The notes: generated from the letters alone by a model not told the origin. DNA of 32,000 bases from Sinorhizobium meliloti (GCF_017876815.1 NZ_JAGIOS010000003.1:1110001-1142000); one strand, 5' to 3'; counted from the stretch's first letter, positions 1,176-23,449 are shown. Made by a program: numbers and translations.

Positions 1176-1200
1176 GGAATAGAAGCCTCTCCGTTCCGTT
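1176..1200 (+). promoter_or_regulatory. Candidate ECF-type promoter P1 (GGAATAGA-N-CCGTT) upstream of the 237-aa gene
   Basis: The sequence is GGAATAGAAGCCTCTCCGTTCCGTT: GGAAT, a spacer of exactly 16 nt, then CGTT, lying 31 nt upstream of the ATG at 1231. The same motif recurs at 2544-2568(-), 3402-3426(-) and 3947-3971(+). Confidence 0.55.
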
Positions 1201-1230: not shown

Positions 1231-1944
1231 ATGTTAAGTTTCCTGAAGAAAGATCCGCAGGTCATTCAGTTTGTCTGCCATCCGGAAGACGATGGCGTCA
1301 TCGCGCCGCCGCTACCGGCCAAATCGGTTCTGCCGGATTGGTTCCGCCGGCTGCCGGCGGTCGACAAAGGGCACCTGTCGGCAACCAACAACGGTCTGAC
1401 CGTCAAACGCTGCATGCCCTTTCTCGATGCTATGACCACCGGCTGGATTCTGCCGATCGCCGCTACGGTGCGCCTTGACGTCAAGGATGACGGCCGCAGC
1501 GTCGATGCAGGCTGGGAGTTCGACCGGGTGATGGTCAGCAACCACGGCGCCCACCAGGTGGCGGGCAATCCGAAAGAGCCCTCCCCGCCCTGCAAGTTTC
1601 ACAATTACTGGTCGATTCGCACGCCGCCGGGATGGAGTTGCCTGTTTCTGCCGCCGCTAAACCGCCCCGGACAGCACTTCGAATGTGTAGCGGGCATTGT
1701 CGATACGGACAGCTATAGCGCTCATATCCATTTTCCGTTCTTCGCGACGGCGCCGGATGGCCTTCACGTCGTCGAAAAGGGAACGCCGCTTGTACAGGTG
1801 ATACCCTTCCGCCGTGCCGATGCGGCGGTCACGGCAGAAATCCGCGCCGAAACCCGCGCGGATGCTACCGAGCGCGAGGCAATCCATCGGAACACCCTCG
1901 CCGGAGAAGGCTGGTATCGCAAGTCGGCGCGCGCCGCGCGCTAG
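1231..1944 (+). CDS. Conserved hypothetical protein, 237 aa, no signal peptide (possibly a DUF6065-type family; not verifiable here)
   Basis: Clean ORF with a GGGAGAAG SD 5 nt upstream of the ATG and GC-rich third codon positions. It is preceded by promoter motif P1. Its stop codon TAG (1942-1944) lies inside the CTAGAGC start of the dispersed repeat. Confidence 0.7.
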   Translation: MLSFLKKDPQVIQFVCHPEDDGVIAPPLPAKSVLPDWFRRLPAVDKGHLSATNNGLTVKRCMPFLDAMTTGWILPIAATVRLDVKDDGRSVDAGWEFDRVMVSNHGAHQVAGNPKEPSPPCKFHNYWSIRTPPGWSCLFLPPLNRPGQHFECVAGIVDTDSYSAHIHFPFFATAPDGLHVVEKGTPLVQVIPFRRADAAVTAEIRAETRADATEREAIHRNTLAGEGWYRKSARAAR

Positions 1945-2131: not shown

Positions 2132-2494
2132 TCAGCGCCCTGTGTGCCACAGCTTGCCTGGACGGTACGACCGGTCTGACCGGTTCGAGCTCGAATTGGA
2201 CGAACGATTCGAGGAGGAGTTCGACGAACTGTTCGAGGATGAATTAGAGCTCGAATTCGAGGAACTGTTGGACGAAGAGTTGGAACTCGAATTGCTGGAG
2301 GAGTTGGAACTCGAATTGGATGAGCTGTTGCCGGCGACTATGATCTCGCCGTCGGTCCGGCCCGTCTGGGCGGTTTGCGTCGAAGTGCGATCCACGCCGG
2401 GAAATAAGGGGGCATATTCCCTTGCTTCGGCCGCAGAGCCCACGAATGCCGCCAGGCCGGCAGCGATTGCCTTGTTCGTCCAGTTCTTTGCCAT
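2132..2494 (-). CDS. Small secreted Asn/Ser tetrapeptide-repeat protein (120 aa; signal peptide followed by 13 NSSS-type units)
   Basis: The start was moved to the ATG at 2494, which has an AAGGAG SD 8 nt upstream. The N-terminus MAKNWTNKAIAAGLAAFVGSAAEA looks like a Sec signal peptide with an AxA cleavage site. Promoter motif P2 lies 50 nt upstream, and the terminator hairpin lies downstream. Confidence 0.7.
   Translation of the reverse strand: MAKNWTNKAIAAGLAAFVGSAAEAREYAPLFPGVDRTSTQTAQTGRTDGEIIVAGNSSSNSSSNSSSNSSSNSSSNSSSNSSSNSSSNSSSNSSSNRSSNSSSNRSDRSYRPGKLWHTGR
2174..2329 (-). repeat. 13 tandem 12-nt (4-codon) units encoding NSSS x10, NRSS, NSSS, NRSD
   Basis: Read directly from the sequence. 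The units use different synonymous Ser and Asn codons (AGC/AGT/TCG/TCC/TCT/TCA; AAC/AAT). The repeat is therefore much more regular at the protein level than at the DNA level. Confidence 0.9.
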
Positions 2495-2590: not shown

Positions 2591-3376
2591 TTACCGTTGC
2601 GCACCTTGGAGTTCGCTGAGGGCTCTGGCCTCTTCCGCTGCCTCGAGCGGCGCCCCTGCATCGATCGCGGTCAGATAGGCGTCGAGCGTTTCCGTGGAAG
2701 ATGCAGGAGCATAACCGCCGGTGGCTCCGGGTGCGATGACGGCGAACGTCACGCGCCACTCTGACCCGGCGCGGCAGGCAACCGAAACCACTGTTGAGCG
2801 ATCGTCCGAGTCCAGCTCGAACTCGCGGCACAGCGCCTGCGCATTGTCACGGAATGTCGCAATCGCCCGGAAACGTTGGTCGGAACCTGGCAACCGCCGT
2901 TCCTCGCCTGCGGCGACCGTGGCGAGCGCCTCGTCAAGCGCAGGGCTGCCGATGGCGGCAACGCCCGAGCCACCCTCGATCGGCGCCTCGACACTTCCCC
3001 GCAGCCAATATCCGCCGAACCCCGCAACGACAGCCGCCAGAGAGGCGGCGACGGGAGCGAGCCATCGACTTCTGTGAGATTCGTTCGCAGCGCGGCGCGG
3101 GAAAGGCAGGATGCCCGCGCCCGATACCGAAGGTGGCGACGTCTTCTCCATCACCATTCTTTCGACCGCACGCTTGAGCTCGGAAGGTACCGGCTCATCG
3201 AGCAGCGGCTCCATAGCGGCCTTGGCCGCATGGCGCGTTTCGATGAAGAGTGCCACCCGCGCGACCAGCGCATCATCCGTTTCCATCGCTCGTTCTACTT
3301 CGGCAGCAGTCCCGGTATCGAGCTCGCCGTCGGCGAACCGCATCAGTATCTCATCCGAGAAGTCGGCTCTTGTCAT
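2591..3376 (-). CDS. Anti-sigma factor: N-terminal anti-sigma domain without a zinc motif, one TM helix, and a periplasmic domain of about 135 aa
   Basis: An ATGA overlap couples it to the sigma gene (3373-3376). The N-terminus MTRADFSDEILMRFADGELD is typical of ECF anti-sigma factors. The TM segment is WLAPVAASLAAVVAGFGGYW. Confidence 0.8.
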   Translation of the reverse strand: MTRADFSDEILMRFADGELDTGTAAEVERAMETDDALVARVALFIETRHAAKAAMEPLLDEPVPSELKRAVERMVMEKTSPPSVSGAGILPFPRRAANESHRSRWLAPVAASLAAVVAGFGGYWLRGSVEAPIEGGSGVAAIGSPALDEALATVAAGEERRLPGSDQRFRAIATFRDNAQALCREFELDSDDRSTVVSVACRAGSEWRVTFAVIAPGATGGYAPASSTETLDAYLTAIDAGAPLEAAEEARALSELQGAQR

Positions 3377-3912
3377 TCGTTTGCGCCCTTCATTGACTGA
3401 GAACGTCCGGTCGCCTGTGTTATTCCGGCAGCCTCGGCCAAACTCCTGCGTGCCCTCGCCAGTCGGCTCATGACCGTACCGATTGGAATGCCCATCACAT
3501 CGGCCGCTTCGCGATAGGATAGCTCCTCGACGCAGACCAGAAGAACCACCTCCCGCTGCTCGTCCGGCAATTCGGTGATCGCCTCCGCGACGGTCTTGAG
3601 GGTCAGCCGCGCTTCGGTTTCACGCTCGCCAGATGAACCGGCGATGTCATGACGCTCGGTGATATCGTCCTGCACGCCTGCGGTCTTCTGTCGGCGCACC
3701 TGGTCGATCCAGAGATTACGCAGGATACGGAATATCCAAGCATCAAAGCGCGTGCCCGGCTCGAAGCGCTCGGCACTGGCGAGTGCCCGCTCGCAGGCCG
3801 ACTGCACGAGATCATCGGCAACATCACGCGAGCCGCAGAGCGAGATGGCGAAGCGGCGCAGATTGGGCAGGAACGCCATGAGGCGTTCGCCGACATCTTT
3901 CACCGCATTGCT
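3373..3912 (-). CDS. ECF (sigma-70 group 4) RNA polymerase sigma factor
   Basis: Region 2 (DLVQSACERALASAERFEPGTRFDAWIFRILRNLWIDQVRR) and region 4 (LPDEQREVVLLVCVEELSYREAADVMGIPIGTVMSRLARARRSL) are both present. I prefer the ATG at 3912, which has a GGGAG SD, over the GTG at 3978, which has none. Confidence 0.9.
   Translation of the reverse strand, partial: SNAVKDVGERLMAFLPNLRRFAISLCGSRDVADDLVQSACERALASAERFEPGTRFDAWIFRILRNLWIDQVRRQKTAGVQDDITERHDIAGSSGERETEARLTLKTVAEAITELPDEQREVVLLVCVEELSYREAADVMGIPIGTVMSRLARARRSLAEAAGITQATGRSQSMKGANE
3402..3426 (-). promoter_or_regulatory. Candidate ECF-type promoter P4, located inside the 3' end of the sigma ORF and facing the anti-sigma gene
   Basis: The minus strand reads GGAATAACACAGGCGACCGGACGTT. 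The spacer is exactly 16 nt, and CGTTCT matches P3. The CGTT ends 26 nt upstream of the anti-sigma ATG at 3376. Confidence 0.5.
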
Positions 3913-3946
3913 CATCTCCCGAAACTCCGCAATTTGGCTAGAAGAG

Positions 3947-3971
3947 GGAATAGACCGACGACTCAGCCGTT
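3947..3971 (+). promoter_or_regulatory. Candidate ECF-type promoter P3 upstream of the S8 peptidase gene
   Basis: The sequence is GGAATAGACCGACGACTCAGCCGTT, with a spacer of exactly 16 nt, 87 nt upstream of the ATG at 4058. It lies in the divergent sigma/peptidase intergenic region. Confidence 0.55.
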
Positions 3972-4057
3972 CTGACACAATCTACAGGTAGCGGTCTCAT
4001 CGTCCAATGAATGCGCTATCCTCCTATGAGCGTGACCTAGCCGATTGAGGTTTTCGG

Positions 4058-5458
4058 ATGCTGACCAAGTTGAAACTGGCTCTGATCGCTCCCATTGCTG
4101 CAATCGCACTCGTATCCGGCGACATCCTGGCTCCTGGAAACATGATTGTGCGTGAAGTGATCGGAACCGGTCTCGCCTTGGCCGATGACGACGACGATGA
4201 CGGTGGGAGTGGCGGCAACCGCGGATCGGGCGGTTCCGGCCGCTCCGGCTCCTACGGCGCCGGCGCCGGATGGAGTGGCGGCAAGAGCCTGTTTCCATTC
4301 CGAGAGTTCCTGCCACGTCGAAGCATCCCGCGGCGCTCTCGCGCAGCCGCACCCGCTGCGCCGATACGAGCGCCCGATGAGATCGTCGGGCTGGGTTTCA
4401 GTCCGACGGAACTCGGCGAGTTGACAGCCACGGGCTTCGAGGTCCTCGAACGAAACACGATGACGTCATTCAACGCCGAGGTGATCAAGCTTCGCATTCC
4501 CCGCGGGCTGACTCTGGAAGCCGCTCGGCAGCGGGCGCGCGCCGCGGCCCCTCAGGCGGTGATCGACTTCAACCATTATTTCCGGCCGGAGCAGCATCGC
4601 GATGCCCCGTGCGTCACGAGCGACTGCCTGGCACGGAACGTGATCGGCTGGCCCTCGGCTCAAACGGGGCCTAGCAATTGCTCGGCCGGCGTGCGGATCG
4701 GCCTTGTCGATACGGCGATCAATCCCGATCACATCGCATTCGAGGCTCGCAACTTAGAGATCGTCCGTCTCGTCGACGAAGAATTGCCGGAGTCGGGCAG
4801 ACAGCACGGCACCGCTGTCGCGGCTTTGCTTGTCGGCTCAGCCAGTGGCCGTACGCCGGGCCTGATACCGGGTGGCAAGCTCATCGCCGTGGACGCATTT
4901 CATCGGGCGGGACGGCAAGACGACCGATCCGCCGCCTTCGATCTGGCGCGCGCACTCGACCTCCTTGCTGGGCGTCAGGTTCAGGTCATCAATCTCAGCC
5001 TTGCCGGGCCGCCCAATCTCCTGCTTGAACAGGCGGTCAAAAAGACGGGGGAGCGCGGGATCATCATGGTCGCCGCCGCGGGCAATGACGGTCCAAGAGC
5101 CGAGCCCGTCTATCCGGGTGCCTATGAAGAGGTCATTGCCGTCACCGCGACCGACAGGCGCAAACGGCCTTACCGGCGCGCCGGACGCGGAGAGCATATC
5201 GACTTCGCCGCCCCTGGCGTGGCGGTCTGGACAGCAGCCTCGGTCAGCGGCGCGCGTCCGAAGACGGGAACCTCTTTCGCCGCCCCTTTCGTGACCGCGG
5301 CGGTGGCGATGATGAAAGCATCTGAGCCGGAGCTCGCTGCGGAGATGCTCCGCGACAGGCTGACCGGACATGCCGAAGATCTCGGAGATCCGGGAAAGGA
5401 TCCTGTCTTCGGCTGGGGCTTGTTGAACGCGCGAGCGATTTGCAAGGCGAAGTCCTGA
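4058..5458 (+). CDS. Secreted S8-family (subtilisin-like) serine peptidase
   Basis: The catalytic motifs occur in D-H-S order: GLVDTAINPDH, HGTAVAALLVG, AAAGNDG (oxyanion Asn) and GTSFAAPFVTAAVAMM. The N-terminus has a hydrophobic signal-like segment followed by a DDDDDDGGSGGNRGSGGSGRSGSYGAGAG low-complexity tract. Confidence 0.9.
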   Translation: MLTKLKLALIAPIAAIALVSGDILAPGNMIVREVIGTGLALADDDDDDGGSGGNRGSGGSGRSGSYGAGAGWSGGKSLFPFREFLPRRSIPRRSRAAAPAAPIRAPDEIVGLGFSPTELGELTATGFEVLERNTMTSFNAEVIKLRIPRGLTLEAARQRARAAAPQAVIDFNHYFRPEQHRDAPCVTSDCLARNVIGWPSAQTGPSNCSAGVRIGLVDTAINPDHIAFEARNLEIVRLVDEELPESGRQHGTAVAALLVGSASGRTPGLIPGGKLIAVDAFHRAGRQDDRSAAFDLARALDLLAGRQVQVINLSLAGPPNLLLEQAVKKTGERGIIMVAAAGNDGPRAEPVYPGAYEEVIAVTATDRRKRPYRRAGRGEHIDFAAPGVAVWTAASVSGARPKTGTSFAAPFVTAAVAMMKASEPELAAEMLRDRLTGHAEDLGDPGKDPVFGWGLLNARAICKAKS

Positions 5459-5755
5459 GCTAAGCCGCTTCGTCCGGCGCAAGACGTGCATGGGAAGGGC
5501 CAAACCCACCGGCCGGCCACTCGCAACAACCGCACAATCGGCGCTGCGTGAAGACGCTGCAGCGTTGCGAGGTCGATGTGCCTAGCTTTCTTGCGGGCGC
5601 ATTGAATTGTTCGTGATCCCGTGCGACTTTCGAAACGCATAATGGGAGCCTCTTCCGTGAGGTGCTCTACGCTCACTGGCGGCCGGGCGGGTGATTATCG
5701 ACTGTCGGCCGCGTGCGGCCCAAAGCCGAATGTTTCCAAGCGAAAGGACCACGCG

Positions 5756-10846: not shown

Positions 10847-11161
10847 ATGAAAAACATAATCATTGTCGCGGCAGCACTAATGAGTGCCGTGACCACGGCA
10901 TCACTCGCGCAAACGACACCTTCATCGGAAGGAGAAACGCCAGCAGTAGCAACGCCCGATTCGCAGAACCCGACGGCACCGGTCGAAGGGGCAAACAGCT
11001 TCACCGAAGCGCAAGCCAAGGAACGGATCGAAGAGGCCGGATATACCGACGTCAGCGGATTGAAGCTCGATGACAAGGGAGTGTGGCAGGCAACTGCGAT
11101 GAAGGAGGGCAAATCCGTTTCGGTCGCGCTCGACTACCAGGGCAACGTAACAGCGCAGTAA
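10847..11161 (+). CDS. Periplasmic PepSY-domain protein
   Basis: The signal peptide is MKNIIIVAAALMSAVTTASLA. The C-terminal region FTEAQAKERIEEAGYTDVSGLKLDDKGVWQATAMKEGKSVSVALDYQGNV is PepSY-like. Confidence 0.8.
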   Translation: MKNIIIVAAALMSAVTTASLAQTTPSSEGETPAVATPDSQNPTAPVEGANSFTEAQAKERIEEAGYTDVSGLKLDDKGVWQATAMKEGKSVSVALDYQGNVTAQ

Positions 11162-11201
11162 CACCCCACAGGCTTCCTCCAAACGCAAAGGGAGAACGAA
11201 T

Positions 11202-11807
11202 ATGAGAACTGTAACAGGGCTCTTTGATGACTATGGCGATGCTCGCGAAGCCGTAAGCGATCTGGAAGCGGCAGGCGTACCTTCGGATGACATCAGCATT
11301 GTCGCGAACAACATTGGCGATCGATACTCCACCGATGGCTCGAACGCGGCGGAAGGCGCGGGTACCGGAGCCGGCCTAGGCGCTGCCGGGGGCGGCGTTG
11401 TCGGTCTTCTGACGGGGCTCGGTCTGATGGCCATCCCTGGGGTCGGCCCCGTAGTGGCTGCCGGGTGGCTTGCCTCCACTGCGGCCGGCGCTGCGGCGGG
11501 CGCAATCGCCGGTGGGGCAGCCGGAGGCCTGATCGGTGCACTGACGGAATCCGGGGTTGATGAAGAAGACGCCCATGTTTACGCCGAGGGCGTTCGCCGG
11601 GGGGGCACGTTGGTCACAGCAAGGGTCGAGGACAGTGTTGCACCACGAGCAGAAGCGATCCTGAAACAGCGGAAAATCGTGGACCCAGCGGCCCGCAGGA
11701 GCATCTATGCCCAGGAAGGATGGTCGCGATTTGACGAAAATGCCGACCCGTACACGCTCGATCAGGTCGATCGAGAGCGGGAGCGGTACCGCAGCATGAT
11801 GCCGTAA
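11202..11807 (+). CDS. General stress protein (YflT/GsiB-17M-like domains flanking a Gly/Ala-rich membrane segment)
   Basis: GGGAGAA SD. The N-terminal region is TVTGLFDDYGDAREAVSDLEAAGVPSDDISIVAN, and a second related domain reads EEDAHVYAEGVRRGGTLVTARV. A central glycine-zipper-like stretch separates them. Confidence 0.8.
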   Translation: MRTVTGLFDDYGDAREAVSDLEAAGVPSDDISIVANNIGDRYSTDGSNAAEGAGTGAGLGAAGGGVVGLLTGLGLMAIPGVGPVVAAGWLASTAAGAAAGAIAGGAAGGLIGALTESGVDEEDAHVYAEGVRRGGTLVTARVEDSVAPRAEAILKQRKIVDPAARRSIYAQEGWSRFDENADPYTLDQVDRERERYRSMMP

Positions 11808-14681: not shown

Positions 14682-16681
<2,000 letters not shown>

Positions 16682-18419: not shown

Positions 18420-18758
18420 CTAATGTTGCTGGCCAATAGGCGACAAGAGCGCCTGCTTCAATTGCTGGCGTACCTCATCAGGCTGCTCCAGCAGCGCAGT
18501 CGCGAGTGTTCTAAGCTCCCGCCTCAGCCCATAGAGCTGATCCAGCAGCGCAAGGATGATCGGCACAGCGTCATCGTTGACGTTCATGTCGCGCCGGAGT
18601 TCACAAACCAGGCGGATGCGAGCGACGTCGACGTCGTCAAATGAGGGCCCGCGCTCGCCTTGAGCCGGCACGATCCAGCCGCTGTGCACCCACTGGCGCA
18701 GCTGTTTGCGGGTTACAATGTCGAACTGTTCAAGGACTTGCCTCTCCGTCAATTTCAT
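18420..18758 (-). CDS. cbpM: Chaperone modulator CbpM (MerR-like HTH)
   Basis: An ATGA overlap couples it to the upstream DnaJ-like gene. The sequence pattern FDDVDVARIRLVCELRRDMNVNDDAVPIILALLDQLYGLRRELR is CbpM-like. Confidence 0.8.
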   Translation of the reverse strand: MKLTERQVLEQFDIVTRKQLRQWVHSGWIVPAQGERGPSFDDVDVARIRLVCELRRDMNVNDDAVPIILALLDQLYGLRRELRTLATALLEQPDEVRQQLKQALLSPIGQQH

Positions 18759-19672
18759 GTGGTCCTCCCTAGAGCCTCGCGCGGGTCATAAGCGTGGCTC
18801 CGCCGCCACGTTTCCATGAATCGCTCGAGATCGGGATCGGTCGCCGTCGGCAGAACGACCTTCAGCGTAACACGCTGATCCCCGGCGGGGCCGTGTTGCG
18901 ACTTCACCCCTTTGCCCCTCAGACGCAGGATGTCGCCCGTATTTGAACCCTTAGGGATGGTCATCGATACGCGGCCGGAGATCGTCGGCACTTCGATCTT
19001 TGCACCAAGCACAGCTTCATAAAGCGTAATTGGCAGATCTATTTCGATGTCGTTGCCTTCACGGCGGAAGACCGAGTGAGAACGGACACTAATTTCGATT
19101 AAGGCATCTCCGGGTTCCCCGCCAGCAATCCCCGGCGTCCCCTTGCCCCTCAGCCGCAGCGTGCTGCCATCACGTGTCCCAGCAGGAATGGCTAAGTCGA
19201 GCGTGTTACCGTCGGGAAAGGTGATGCGGCGTCGGGCGCCGTTTACCGCGTCCAGGAACTCGAGTTCGAGGTGATAATGACGGTCCTGCCCACGCGCCTT
19301 GAAACGGCCCCCTGCCCCGCCCTGCCCGAAAAGATCCGCGAAGATGTCCGACACATCTTCGAATTCACCAGTTCCGCCCGCTGATCCATACCGCCGTGCG
19401 TGGTCTGCATCGGCGTAGTGCCTGTAAAAGTGCTGCTGCGGCCGTTCAGCCCCCGATGCATCGATCTCGCCCCGGTCGAACCGGGCCCGCTGCTCGGGAT
19501 CGCTCAGCAAATGGTAGGCTGCGGAAAGCGCCTTGAATTTGGTTTCCACCTCCTTGTCGCCTGGATGGAGATCTGGGTGCAGCTCCTTTGCGCGCTTGCG
19601 GTAGGCTTTGCGGATCTCATCCGGTTTGCCGGTACGCGGAACGCCGAGTATCTGATAGGGATCATCAGTCAC
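18755..19672 (-). CDS. cbpA: Curved-DNA-binding DnaJ-family co-chaperone CbpA (J domain plus two C-terminal domains, no zinc finger)
   Basis: The J domain DPYQILGVPRTGKPDEIRKAYRKRAKELHPDLHPGD carries the HPD motif. The start was set at the GTG at 19672, which has a GGAGG 7 nt upstream. Confidence 0.85.
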   Translation of the reverse strand: MTDDPYQILGVPRTGKPDEIRKAYRKRAKELHPDLHPGDKEVETKFKALSAAYHLLSDPEQRARFDRGEIDASGAERPQQHFYRHYADADHARRYGSAGGTGEFEDVSDIFADLFGQGGAGGRFKARGQDRHYHLELEFLDAVNGARRRITFPDGNTLDLAIPAGTRDGSTLRLRGKGTPGIAGGEPGDALIEISVRSHSVFRREGNDIEIDLPITLYEAVLGAKIEVPTISGRVSMTIPKGSNTGDILRLRGKGVKSQHGPAGDQRVTLKVVLPTATDPDLERFMETWRRSHAYDPREALGRTT

Positions 19673-19865
19673 CGAACACCTCCACCAATTTAACGGGCAC
19701 GTCGAATGCACGGCCGCGGCAAACTGCGCGTCAACATTTCTGTTTAATTTAGCCCGCAGGAAAAGGTGCGCAAGATTGAGACGACGGCAGCGTAGCGGGT
19801 CAAAGGGTTTGGCGGCCTGAGGAGTACGCCAGGCCCGAGAGCTCGCTGGTCTACTCTCCACTAAG

Positions 19866-20607: not shown

Positions 20608-23142
20608 TCATGTGAGTGGCGCTTCGATGTGAAAGCGCACGCCACTCGGTGCAAACACAAGGTCAACTTTGCCGCCCAGTTCGCGGGCCAAAGCACGTTC
20701 CAGCAGACGAGTGCCAAAACCGGTCCGCGCTGGGACCATGACAGATGGACCACCAATCTCCTCCCATTGTAAATGCAGGTGAGATACGCTCTCAAGATCG
20801 CTGACATGCCAGTTGACCTTGATCAGACCACCGTCGTTCGTGAGCGCCCCGTATTTTGCAGCGTTTGTGCAAAGCTCATGAAAAGCCATCGATAATGCCA
20901 ACGCCATTTTCGGCCGCAACCGGAGCGGCGGACCAGAGGCCTGAACGCGCTGCTGGGGTTCCACGCAAATCGGATTGATCGTCGCGTGAAGAACCTCTCC
21001 AAGATCCGCACCCTGCCAGCTCTCCCGAGTAAGCACGTCGTGCGCCCTCGCCAATGCTACGAGCCGGCTTTGGAACCGGCCAAAATCTTCGCTTGCATTT
21101 ACACCACGGAAGGTTTGCGCAGCCAGCGATTGAACCGTGGCGAGCGTGTTCTTCACGCGGTGGTTCAGTTCGTTGACCAGGAGCTTGCGGTGTTCTTCGC
21201 TGCGTCGCCTTTCAGTAATATCGCGCGCGATCTTCGACGCGCCGACGACGCGACCGAGGGCGTCTTTCAAAGGGGAAACCGTTAAGGAGACATCGATCAG
21301 GCTTCCGTCCTTTCGAATACGTACCGTCTCATAATGGTCGATGTGCTCGTCTCGCCGAATCCTTTCAAGGATGCCGGGTTCCTCGCCCTGGCGGTCGGGC
21401 GGAATGAGGATGTTTATAGGTTTTCCGATCACTTCCTCGGCGCTATAGCCGAACAGGCGTTCGGCACCTTTATTCCAAGTCTGGATAATGCCTTGCGTGT
21501 CCTTGCTTACGATCGCATCATCCGAGAATCTGACAATTGACGCGAGCCGTTCTGCATATTCCGCAGCTTTCTCGCGATCGGAGATGTCCACCAGCATATT
21601 GACCGCCCCAACAAGCTTGCCGGCGACATCGTGCAGCGGAGTGGGATAAGGTATGAACGGCACACGGGTACCATCCGGTCTTTCGGCCACGGCTTGTTCG
21701 CCACGGACCGGTCGATCTTCTTTGAGCGCCACGGCCATTGGACATTGGTCGTGCGGCAGGTAGGTGCCGTCCGGCCTATAGAGACGCCAGGTGACACACC
21801 ATTTATCTCCGATCTGTGGGGTGCGGCCGGCCATTTCGACAGCCGCCTTATTGAAGAAGGTGATGCGACCTTCGGCATCTGTGGTGTAGACGGCGGCGGG
21901 CAGCGCCTCGAGCAAATCACGCATATGCTGTTCGCTTTCGCGGCGGCGGTCGTCCATGCGTTTGGCTTCGGTGACATCAAGCAGAACCCGCACGCCATAA
22001 CGGAATCGACCGGTGCGATCGCGCACCGTCGAGCTGTAAACGTCGAGATAGATCACCGTACCGTCCGCCTTCACGGCGCGCTTGCGGATAGCATAGGTAT
22101 CAGTCTCTCCGCTGACCTGCCGCGCGTAGCAACGGGCCTCCTCGTCGCGGTCATCCTCGTGCGTGTAGTCGAGGAACGTCATGTTCAGGAGTTGTTCGCG
22201 CGAGCGGCCCAGCATGGTGCAAAATGCATCATTCACCCGCAATAGGCGCCCATCCGCATCGGACTCGGCGATCCCGATCGTGGCCGCCTGATACGTGGCC
22301 GCCAAGCGTTCCTCAGTCTCGCGCCACGCGTTTTCGGTTTCGTGCAGGCTCGTTATATCGGTCGTGAAGCACCGCGTATTGACGAATTTCCCATCCTCGA
22401 AGCGACTGTTGGAGGTGATCAGCACATGCTTGATCGAGCCATCCCGTGCGCGCAAGCGGGCGGGATAGCGATCAAGCTTTTCGCCGCAGGAAAGACGGTC
22501 AAGAATATCGCCGATAACCGGTGCATCTGCGTGGAATTCAGCAATGTGCCGGCCTACATACTCGTCCGCCGGATACCCCAGGAGCTCCAGCTCTGCCTTA
22601 TTTGCCCGCAGGATGATCCCCGCGGCGCTGACGATGTGCAGCCCGATGGCGCTGTTCTCGAAGAAGTCCTCCAGGTCCTTGCTCTTGCAGTTAACCTCCG
22701 CCTCGATCCGCTTTTGTTGCGAAATATCCTGAAAGCAATTGATCGCCCCTTGAATTACTCCCCGATGGTCTCTGAGCGGGCGAATGTTCACGAGCGCAAA
22801 AATGCGGGATCCGTCGGGTCTTTCGATGATCACTTCGGCGTTGCGCGTCGAGACACCGGTCTTGATCGCCTCAGCCATGGGGCATTCCTGGTGGTCCATG
22901 GGCGAGCCGTCCGAGAGGAAAAGACGCTGGGAACCACAAAATCGCTCTCGCGGTGCGCTAAGCGACGGCTGTCTACCCCAAAGTTCGGCAGCCTCCGCGT
23001 TGTAGCCCACGAGCCACCCCTCGTGATCACAGACATAAACGGCTCCCGGTATAGCATCAAGCGCAGTTGGAGCTGACGTAATCAGCGCTTCGTATTCGGT
23101 CAGTACGCGACCGGTGAGTGGAAATTCCTCGACATTCGACAT
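20608..23142 (-). CDS. Cytoplasmic multi-PAS sensor histidine kinase of the HWE/HisKA_2 type (start uncertain: ATG 23142 or TTG 23169)
   Basis: The H-box is LLVNELNHRVKNTLATVQSLAAQT, and a W-x-E box (LHLQWEEIGGP) is present. About 4-5 PAS/PAC repeats occupy the first 640 aa or so. No TM segment is visible. Confidence 0.9.
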   Translation of the reverse strand: MSNVEEFPLTGRVLTEYEALITSAPTALDAIPGAVYVCDHEGWLVGYNAEAAELWGRQPSLSAPRERFCGSQRLFLSDGSPMDHQECPMAEAIKTGVSTRNAEVIIERPDGSRIFALVNIRPLRDHRGVIQGAINCFQDISQQKRIEAEVNCKSKDLEDFFENSAIGLHIVSAAGIILRANKAELELLGYPADEYVGRHIAEFHADAPVIGDILDRLSCGEKLDRYPARLRARDGSIKHVLITSNSRFEDGKFVNTRCFTTDITSLHETENAWRETEERLAATYQAATIGIAESDADGRLLRVNDAFCTMLGRSREQLLNMTFLDYTHEDDRDEEARCYARQVSGETDTYAIRKRAVKADGTVIYLDVYSSTVRDRTGRFRYGVRVLLDVTEAKRMDDRRRESEQHMRDLLEALPAAVYTTDAEGRITFFNKAAVEMAGRTPQIGDKWCVTWRLYRPDGTYLPHDQCPMAVALKEDRPVRGEQAVAERPDGTRVPFIPYPTPLHDVAGKLVGAVNMLVDISDREKAAEYAERLASIVRFSDDAIVSKDTQGIIQTWNKGAERLFGYSAEEVIGKPINILIPPDRQGEEPGILERIRRDEHIDHYETVRIRKDGSLIDVSLTVSPLKDALGRVVGASKIARDITERRRSEEHRKLLVNELNHRVKNTLATVQSLAAQTFRGVNASEDFGRFQSRLVALARAHDVLTRESWQGADLGEVLHATINPICVEPQQRVQASGPPLRLRPKMALALSMAFHELCTNAAKYGALTNDGGLIKVNWHVSDLESVSHLHLQWEEIGGPSVMVPARTGFGTRLLERALARELGGKVDLVFAPSGVRFHIEAPLT

Positions 23143-23449
23143 GTAAACAGGGCTCTCGCGGCTCTTCAAGGGATCGATTGAATCTCAGCCGGAGTCATGG
23201 AGGGACAACTCTGCTCGACGCGCGACCCCCGGGTGCGCAATCTCGGTTAACGTGCATGAACGTACCAGACGCGGTTTTGTTCCCGCCATTTTTTGACTCG
23301 CGCATTTTCGGACCGGCAGCGTCATCCAAGGAGTACCGTTGATCGCACGCGCGCCGCAGGTTGGTCACGGCGTCCTTCTTGAAGGATATGGCGAGAAGCT
23401 GCCCAGCTCCTTCGCCGTTCGCTAATGAGGACGCGACCTAGAATCGTGA

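Follow-up and report, generated by a model that had tools for sequence, protein, structure and literature searches.

Which part does a subtilisin-like protease play when its gene is transcribed divergently from that of an extracytoplasmic function (ECF) sigma factor and carries a promoter of the type that this factor reads? The question is raised by a 32,000-nucleotide stretch of Sinorhizobium meliloti DNA (GCF_017876815.1, NZ_JAGIOS010000003.1:1110001-1142000; hereafter the window), in which a gene for an S8-family peptidase lies next to the genes of the sigma factor RpoE6 and its anti-sigma factor EcfR6 (Table 1). A sequence-only reading of the window had described the gene product as a sigma-controlled, secreted and probably active subtilase with an unusual acidic tract near its N-terminus, and had proposed it as the main output of the sigma factor. 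The analysis presented here confirms the observation and supports the interpretation, although most of this has already been published for this exact gene. The reading that we consider probable, if not secure, is that the protein is a Sec-exported, periplasmic subtilase zymogen that represents the conserved proteolytic output of an RpoE6/EcfR6 envelope module.

The subtilase gene and its RpoE6-dependent promoter

The part of the window between positions 1200 and 6300 is 100% identical to the pSymA megaplasmids of S. meliloti strains SM11 and RU11/001. The nearest database protein to the protease is an S. meliloti "S8 family serine peptidase" (99% identical), and a near-identical annotated pSymA record carries a coding sequence of equal length under the same name, in the gene order GreA, DUF6065, hypothetical protein, anti-sigma factor, sigma factor, S8 peptidase, VOC protein and EAL protein. 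The region corresponds to SMa0148 - SMa0146 - ecfR6 (SMa0144) - rpoE6 (SMa0143) - SMa0142 - SMa0139 of strain 1021, and the protease gene, which has a GAGG Shine-Dalgarno sequence at 4047-4050, 7 nucleotides 5′ of its ATG, is almost certainly SMa0142 of pSymA.

In the study of Lang et al. (2018, mSphere, PMC6180224), all 11 ECF sigma factors of S. meliloti were overexpressed individually, and SMa0142, listed as "serine protease", was upregulated with RpoE6 (log2 of 4.7). The SMa0142 promoter given in Table 1 of that paper, AAGAGGGAATAGACCGACGACTCAGCCGTTCTGACACAa, matches the plus strand of the window exactly and sets the transcription start at position 3980. The promoter string, the transcription start and the divergent rpoE6-ecfR6 neighbours are all equal, and the two genes are one and the same. 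The GGAATA-N15-CGTT motif at 3947-3971 faces the protease gene, upstream of which the sequence-only reading had placed a motif (P3) when it assigned the gene to the sigma factor, and the dependence of the gene on RpoE6 is on record (PMC6180224). "ECF-controlled subtilase" is thus a correct but not a new description. The paper does not deal with the architecture of the protein, the conserved poly-Asp/basic extension or the co-occurrence of (NSSS)n and DUF6065 genes, all of which are described below.

The published rpoE6 promoter string maps to 4009-3971 on the minus strand. Because the resulting transcription start at 3971 (minus strand) excludes the upstream GTG at 3978, rpoE6 must begin at the ATG at 3915, as annotated by the Prokaryotic Genome Annotation Pipeline (PGAP). 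The transcription starts of the two genes stand back to back, each promoter lying inside the 5′ untranslated region of the other gene, and with starts at 3971 (minus strand) and 3980 (plus strand) the divergent transcripts overlap by 10 nucleotides. The promoter of rpoE6 itself displays no match to GGAATA/CGTT.

Lang et al. call the arrangement of the sigma and protease genes widely conserved, treat the activation mechanism of ECF26 factors as hypothetical and report no role for RpoE6 (PMC6180224). A heterologous Pecf26 promoter is strongly activated by RpoE6 (PMC10880074). Our search for literature on rpoE6 outside Lang et al. found nothing useful, and the main text of the 2021 reclassification of ECF sigma factors by Casas-Pastor contains no mention of S8 or subtilase.

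Architecture of the protease and its N-terminal extension

The Peptidase_S8 profile (PF00082) matches residues 210-454 of the protease with 119 bits (cut-off 21.8) over profile positions 2-288 of 288. In an alignment with subtilisin DY, the residues Asp32, His64, Asn155 and Ser221 of the latter fall on Asp218, His250, Asn343 and Ser406. The alignment and the Pfam domain bear out the intact Asp/His/Ser triad and oxyanion Asn of the sequence-only reading. To assess conservation, we used a set of 210 full-length family members, which includes representatives clustered at 50% identity and many proteins that are at most 50% identical to the query. The four residues are kept in 209, 210, 207 and 205 members, respectively, so that each is present in at least 205 of the 210. 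As the triad and the oxyanion Asn are conserved across the family, the enzyme looks active, which agrees with the earlier supposition. The chain ends 12 residues past the S8 domain and therefore has neither a C-terminal anchor nor an autotransporter barrel, again as had been proposed.

The named NCBIfam models that score highest on the catalytic domain are those of the mycosins, QhpE and PatA, all of them well under their cut-offs. Membership of the mycosins (TIGR03921) was rejected at 128.8 bits (cut-off 278.75) and for want of a C-terminal membrane anchor, that of QhpE (NF049966) at 79.5 bits (cut-off 165) and that of the cyanobactin peptidases PatA/PatG (TIGR03895) at 66.6 bits (cut-off 421.05); the autotransporter serine peptidase model (EprS, NF051851) reached 19 bits of the 1700 needed, and nothing follows the S8 domain at the C-terminus. 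Mycosins, QhpE and PatA/PatG share with the protease a compact S8 domain, have narrow specificity and, in the case of PatA, are found, as is PagA, among its structural matches, but the protease has none of their gene context, be it type VII secretion genes, a quinohemoprotein or a cyanobactin cluster. A search with the prodomain and linker (residues 76-210) returned only 220 matches among 1.84 billion cluster representatives at E ≤ 1e-3. As judged by sequence, the protease belongs to a small, specific family.

A prodomain-like region had been suspected ahead of the catalytic domain, and structure prediction lends support to it. In an AlphaFold model of the protease, built from an alignment of 19 sequences with a mean predicted local distance difference test score (pLDDT) of 57.7, residues 103-176 form a confident beta-alpha-beta-beta-alpha-beta unit (pLDDT about 85-92). 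The best Foldseek matches in the Protein Data Bank (PDB) are subtilase pro-forms, namely PCSK9, fervidolysin, unprocessed pro-subtilisin E and Tk-SP, with 370-450 aligned columns, and PatA and PagA rank after them. The Pfam scan found no I9 domain in the protease. This region is likely to serve as a chaperone in folding and as an inhibitor. Four cysteines, Cys185, Cys190 and Cys208 of the linker and Cys462, are present in 196-203 of the 210 members; they would fit an oxidising compartment and may form disulfides.

With the classical pro-subtilisins (subtilisin E/BPN′, Tk-subtilisin and fervidolysin), the protease has in common the S8 fold, the Asp-His-Ser triad, the oxyanion Asn and a predicted I9-like prodomain. 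It differs from them in its identity of only about 25-29%, its four family-specific cysteines, a Gram-negative host, the lack of a route across the outer membrane and an extra disordered extension of about 60 residues, acidic and then basic, in front of the prodomain.

This extension follows a presequence that is itself uncommon. The hydrophobic core of the presequence has a Kyte-Doolittle hydropathy of 2.8, and both alanines of its A-x-A motif are well conserved (A40 in 185 and A42 in 198 of the 210 members). The whole is unusually long, the family median being 42 residues, with a conserved Pro/Gly-containing spacer between the core and A-x-A that measures 21 residues here (family median 18, range 13-21). 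A hydrophobic core preceded by basic residues occurs in the 173 of 210 members in which A-x-A is followed by an acidic residue. Cleavage after A42 is plausible and would leave Asp43 at the N-terminus. The protein had been called secreted; the N-terminal export signal upholds this in part, and since nothing points past the periplasm, the protein is better described as exported to that compartment.

The acidic and then flexible tract that had been placed between the signal-like N-terminus and the prodomain occupies exactly residues 43-75. Its first three aspartates, D43, D44 and D45, are kept in 173, 195 and 186 of the 210 members, respectively, and because the positions of A-x-A and of the aspartates are conserved across the family, the tract is not a chance run of low complexity. 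The same junction was examined at the level of whole loci, for which we took the best 80 of 505 relatives, one genome per species, from Hyphomicrobiales, Rhodobacterales and Inquilinus. A strict [AGSV]-x-[AG]/[DE]-D junction (the slash marks the putative cleavage point) is present in 67 of these 80 loci, 65 times in the form A-x-A. A median of 63 residues (range 35-111) separates the junction from the prodomain. This stretch has a median net charge of −9 in its acidic head and +7 in its Arg/Pro-rich tail; its sequence is otherwise highly variable, with R87, R92 and P102 nearly invariant in the family alignment. In the AlphaFold model, residues 12-102 are disordered, with a pLDDT of 30-40 in the acidic tract. 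An acidic-then-basic disordered extension after an AxA/DDD junction is thus near-universal in the family. The conservation of the poly-Asp tract is the one part of the analysis for which no counterpart was found in the literature, and it adds a modest new detail. Candidate roles of the extension are cation binding, pairing of the charges of head and tail, and docking of a partner.

Conservation of the locus and its accessory genes

As had been read from the window, the protease gene is divergent from the sigma gene, and the comparison of neighbourhoods that had been proposed alongside shows the S8, ECF and anti-sigma genes to form a conserved triad. In 74 of the 80 loci, the sigma gene lies directly upstream in the divergent orientation and is followed by the anti-sigma gene; in two of the six other loci, the sigma/anti-sigma pair is oriented differently, and of the last four loci, two are truncated contigs. 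Together with the published dependence on RpoE6, this means that neither outcome named as a refutation of the earlier reading, expression independent of the sigma factor or a triad or synteny that orthologues do not keep, holds. The strict GGAATA-N15-CGTT motif faces the protease in 48 of the 74 loci. The relaxed form GGAATA-N13-16-CGT, which has the published looser −10 element, does so in 67 of the 74 loci, where sequence shuffles predict 0.4, and faces the sigma gene in five. The protease accompanies the sigma/anti-sigma pair in 74 of 80 loci, whereas the other local targets do so in only about 34-36 of 80. Synteny therefore agrees with the proposal that the protease is the main output of the sigma factor, whereas fold-change does not, as SMa0148, the DUF6065 gene, was induced more strongly than SMa0142 (log2 of 6.5, PMC6180224).

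Within the first 7 kb of the window, there are four GGAATA-N15-CGTT motifs, against about 0.2 expected by our own estimate from base composition. Each is upstream of a gene and correctly oriented: DUF6065 (1176, plus strand), the (NSSS)n gene (2568, minus strand), ecfR6 (3426, minus strand) and the protease gene (3947, plus strand). The motif of ecfR6 lies within the 3′ end of rpoE6 and agrees with an internal promoter that Lang et al. report to depend on RpoE6; ecfR6 would then be induced by RpoE6 independently of rpoE6 itself. The periplasmic domain of EcfR6 (2591-3004, minus strand) carries a Cys pair (LCREFE ... VACR) and a C-terminal GY.PAS...LD.YL motif that are conserved in 75 anti-sigma sequences. 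No Pfam domain matched this part of EcfR6, and a search for its relatives, meant to test whether it travels together with the protease, gave only 11 matches. A redox or disulfide role for the Cys pair is conceivable.

The product of the (NSSS)n gene has a signal peptide and a repeat of 12 NSSS units, 47 of whose 48 residues are perfect at the peptide level. Every one of the six Ser codons, which span both codon boxes, is used in the repeat, as are both Asn codons, and such a near-perfect peptide repeat built from mixed codons indicates that selection acts on the minus-strand frame. The plus-strand, Glu/Leu-rich "ELELE..." reading frame at 2085-2585 was accordingly rejected as a real gene. In at least one pSymA record, CP140920.1, PGAP has this opposite-strand frame as a "hypothetical protein", which is probably a mis-call of the strand.

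Genes for a signal peptide followed by (NSSS)n were found in 36 of the 80 loci and in several genera (for instance at 3745-4131 of locus L007, 3048-3377 of L006 and 7257-8069 of L020, all on the minus strand). Their products come in two flavours, one with a basic, Trp/Arg-rich C-terminus and the other with an A-x-A/DDP start (mature DDP..TRFL) and a C-terminal DDD, and an N-x-S sequon recurs in all repeat units. The co-occurrence with DUF6065, put at about 45% of loci, is near-perfect, with both genes present in 33 loci and DUF6065 alone in one; it is a further modest new detail. In over half of the loci, the protease and its acidic tract are retained although neither an (NSSS)n nor a DUF6065 gene lies within 6 kb, and processing of NSSS proteins is therefore not the general function of the protease family.

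Motifs seemingly shared by the flanks of the NSSS repeat and the extension of the protease ("GWSGG..LF" and "RRW") were tested by comparing Smith-Waterman scores with those of composition-preserving shuffles. The median z was 0.15 and z exceeded 2 in one of 32 loci; the resemblance is compositional only. The AlphaFold model of the DUF6065 protein has a mean pLDDT of 51. Foldseek gave weak dUTPase-like matches to this low-confidence model (E about 1e-2, TM-score about 0.3), a profile search of PDB sequences found no fold for the protein (best E 0.69), and a literature search on DUF6065 found nothing.

The SMa0139 and SMa_sRNA_10 promoter strings of strain 1021 were not found in the window with up to four errors allowed, and the strains must therefore differ in the non-coding stretch that separates the protease gene from the VOC gene (5459-5752). 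Farther along, the window holds stress-like genes: a small secreted protein and a Gly-rich membrane protein (11202-11807) within 10847-11807 and, between 14888 and 23169, an extra GroEL-type chaperonin (14888-16681), a DnaJ-like protein (18755-19861) and a multi-PAS HWE histidine kinase (20608-23169). These surroundings fit the reported overlap of the RpoE6 regulon with the general-stress regulon of RpoE2.

Table 1. Positions in the window of the subtilase gene, the parts of its product and the neighbouring elements (aa, amino acids)
Feature	Position	Strand	Basis or detail
S8 subtilase gene, SMa0142 orthologue	4058..5458	+	466 aa, ATG start; Pfam and sequence identity
ECF26-type promoter (RpoE6) upstream of the protease gene	3942..3980	+	−35 GGAATA 3947-3952, −10 CGTT 3968-3971, published start 3980
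Presequence, aa 1-42	4058..4183	+	basic N-end, hydrophobic core aa 7-21, then spacer, A-x-A aa 40-42
Poly-Asp then Gly/Ser-rich tract DDDDDDGGSGGNRGSGGSGRSGSYGAGAGWSGG, aa 43-75	4184..4282	+	acidic head of the disordered extension
Arg/Pro-rich basic tail KSLFPFREFLPRRSIPRRSRAAAPAAP, aa 76-102	4283..4363	+	charge, low pLDDT
Predicted I9-like prodomain, aa 103-176	4364..4585	+	beta-alpha-beta-beta-alpha-beta; ends in conserved DFNHY(F/Y)RP
Linker, aa 177-209	4586..4684	+	conserved Cys185, Cys190, Cys208
Catalytic domain, aa 210-466	4685..5458	+	Pfam match, subtilisin DY alignment, family conservation
Catalytic codons	Asp218 4709-4711, His250 4805-4807, Asn343 5084-5086, Ser406 5273-5275	+	
rpoE6, ECF26 sigma factor, 180 aa	3373..3915	-	published start 3971 (-)
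ecfR6, single-pass anti-sigma factor	2591..3376	-	periplasmic domain with conserved Cys pair
ecfR6 internal promoter GGAATA-N15-CGTT, GGAATAACACAGGCGACCGGACGTT	3426-3402	-	inside the rpoE6 3′ end
(NSSS)12-repeat secreted protein, 120 aa, probably SMa0146	2132..2494	-	GGAATA-N15-CGTT 2568-2544 (-)
DUF6065 protein, SMa0148	1231..1944	+	GGAATA-N15-CGTT promoter 1176-1200 (+)

Proposed place of the protease in the RpoE6 module

We propose the following course of events for a protease that is the output of the module. RpoE6, which the membrane anti-sigma factor EcfR6 restrains, reads the ECF26-type GGAATA-N15-CGTT promoter and so brings about transcription of the protease gene. The product would travel to the periplasm via Sec, where we infer it to be located, fold with the help of its prodomain and then process itself. 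The mature enzyme would cut periplasmic or envelope proteins, and the co-regulated (NSSS)n protein, where present, is one candidate substrate. Other envelope-stress sigma loci encode proteases as well: DegP is under the control of sigma-E, and MucD is encoded in rpoE-rseA-mucD operons. Like them, the subtilase would be a periplasmic protease that is transcribed by, and encoded beside, an envelope ECF sigma factor, with feedback being possible; DegP and MucD, however, are HtrA-family (S1C) enzymes with PDZ domains, whereas the enzyme in question is an S8 zymogen.

Several points weigh against this proposal. Sequence alone does not distinguish an output of the module from a regulator. For a site of signal peptidase I, the hydrophobic core and A-x-A are spaced far apart, an unusual geometry that makes it conceivable for the N-terminus to be an uncleaved membrane anchor. 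Prediction tools disagree on the location of the protease, and one report combines a predicted localisation of "cytoplasmic" with the name "extracellular serine protease" (PMC8175422). The catalytic domain is poorly modelled by AlphaFold, which leaves the S8 assignment unaffected, as this assignment is independent of the model. As for function, Lang et al. describe a strain devoid of all 11 ECF sigma factors as fixing nitrogen and surviving envelope stress (PMC6180224), and plants remained Fix+ upon overexpression of SMa0142 in bacteroids (PMC8175422).

The protease could instead belong to the signalling path itself, making the site-1 cut in the periplasmic domain of EcfR6 that frees RpoE6, with the extension sensing a cue such as cations, pH or cationic peptides; as the protease gene is itself under RpoE6, this would imply positive feedback. 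We consider such a role unlikely, even though it would account for the protease being the most constant partner of the sigma/anti-sigma pair and for an extension that keeps its charge pattern and not its sequence, as a physico-chemical sensor would. A periplasmic location would, moreover, be common to the protease and the EcfR6 sensor domain, and the mechanism by which ECF26 anti-sigma factors are activated is stated to be unknown (PMC6180224). Conserved neighbours that bear the sigma factor's own promoter are, however, usually members of its regulon, our literature search found no S8 protease tied to anti-sigma cleavage, and known site-1 proteases that it did return, such as Prc and CtpA, belong to other families. 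The same is true of DegS, PrsW and signal peptidase, which also counts against a site-1 cut by a subtilase. An extended version, in which the extension gates the zymogen as a sensor of divalent cations, pH or cationic peptides and the active protease cuts EcfR6 and/or the (NSSS)n protein, so that the S8, ECF26 and anti-sigma genes, with or without those of NSSS and DUF6065, form a self-contained, protease-triggered envelope signalling loop, appears to us decidedly improbable; to our knowledge, no loop of that kind with an S8 enzyme has been described.

The common promoter motif of the S8, (NSSS)n, DUF6065 and ecfR6 genes, the near-perfect co-occurrence of the (NSSS)n and DUF6065 genes and the strong peptide-level selection on the repeat bring up another arrangement, in which the protease is devoted to maturing or degrading the (NSSS)n protein and DUF6065 is a third partner, such as a modifying enzyme, in a small peptide- or polymer-producing cassette under RpoE6. 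It would be in keeping with this arrangement that the nearest named NCBIfam models, although all below their cut-offs, describe specific processing proteases. The probability that we assign to it is nevertheless low, as the protease and its acidic tract persist in over half of the loci with neither partner gene within 6 kb, no motif common to the NSSS flanks and the extension was found beyond composition, and DUF6065 gave no interpretable fold. A truly extracellular protease of broad specificity, nutritional or directed at the host, would be in line with the older S. meliloti annotation (PMC8175422) and with the secreted Bacillus subtilisins that are the closest solved relatives by sequence. 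This is very unlikely, considering (i) that no autotransporter barrel, C-terminal sorting signal or nearby secretion genes were found, (ii) that an envelope sigma/anti-sigma pair is closely linked with the gene, and (iii) that overexpression had no effect on the host plant (PMC8175422).

As the gene, its sigma control and the gene arrangement have been published and mutants without the regulators display no phenotype, the finding carries little practical weight at present. Its residual value is comparative. Across alphaproteobacteria, no other partner accompanies RpoE6-type sigma/anti-sigma pairs as constantly as the protease. The enzyme bears a near-universal, acidic-then-basic disordered extension that starts with poly-Asp, and in about half of the loci it is joined by a secreted (NSSS)n protein under strong selection together with DUF6065. 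These observations offer handles on what ECF26 systems of the RpoE6 type sense and do.

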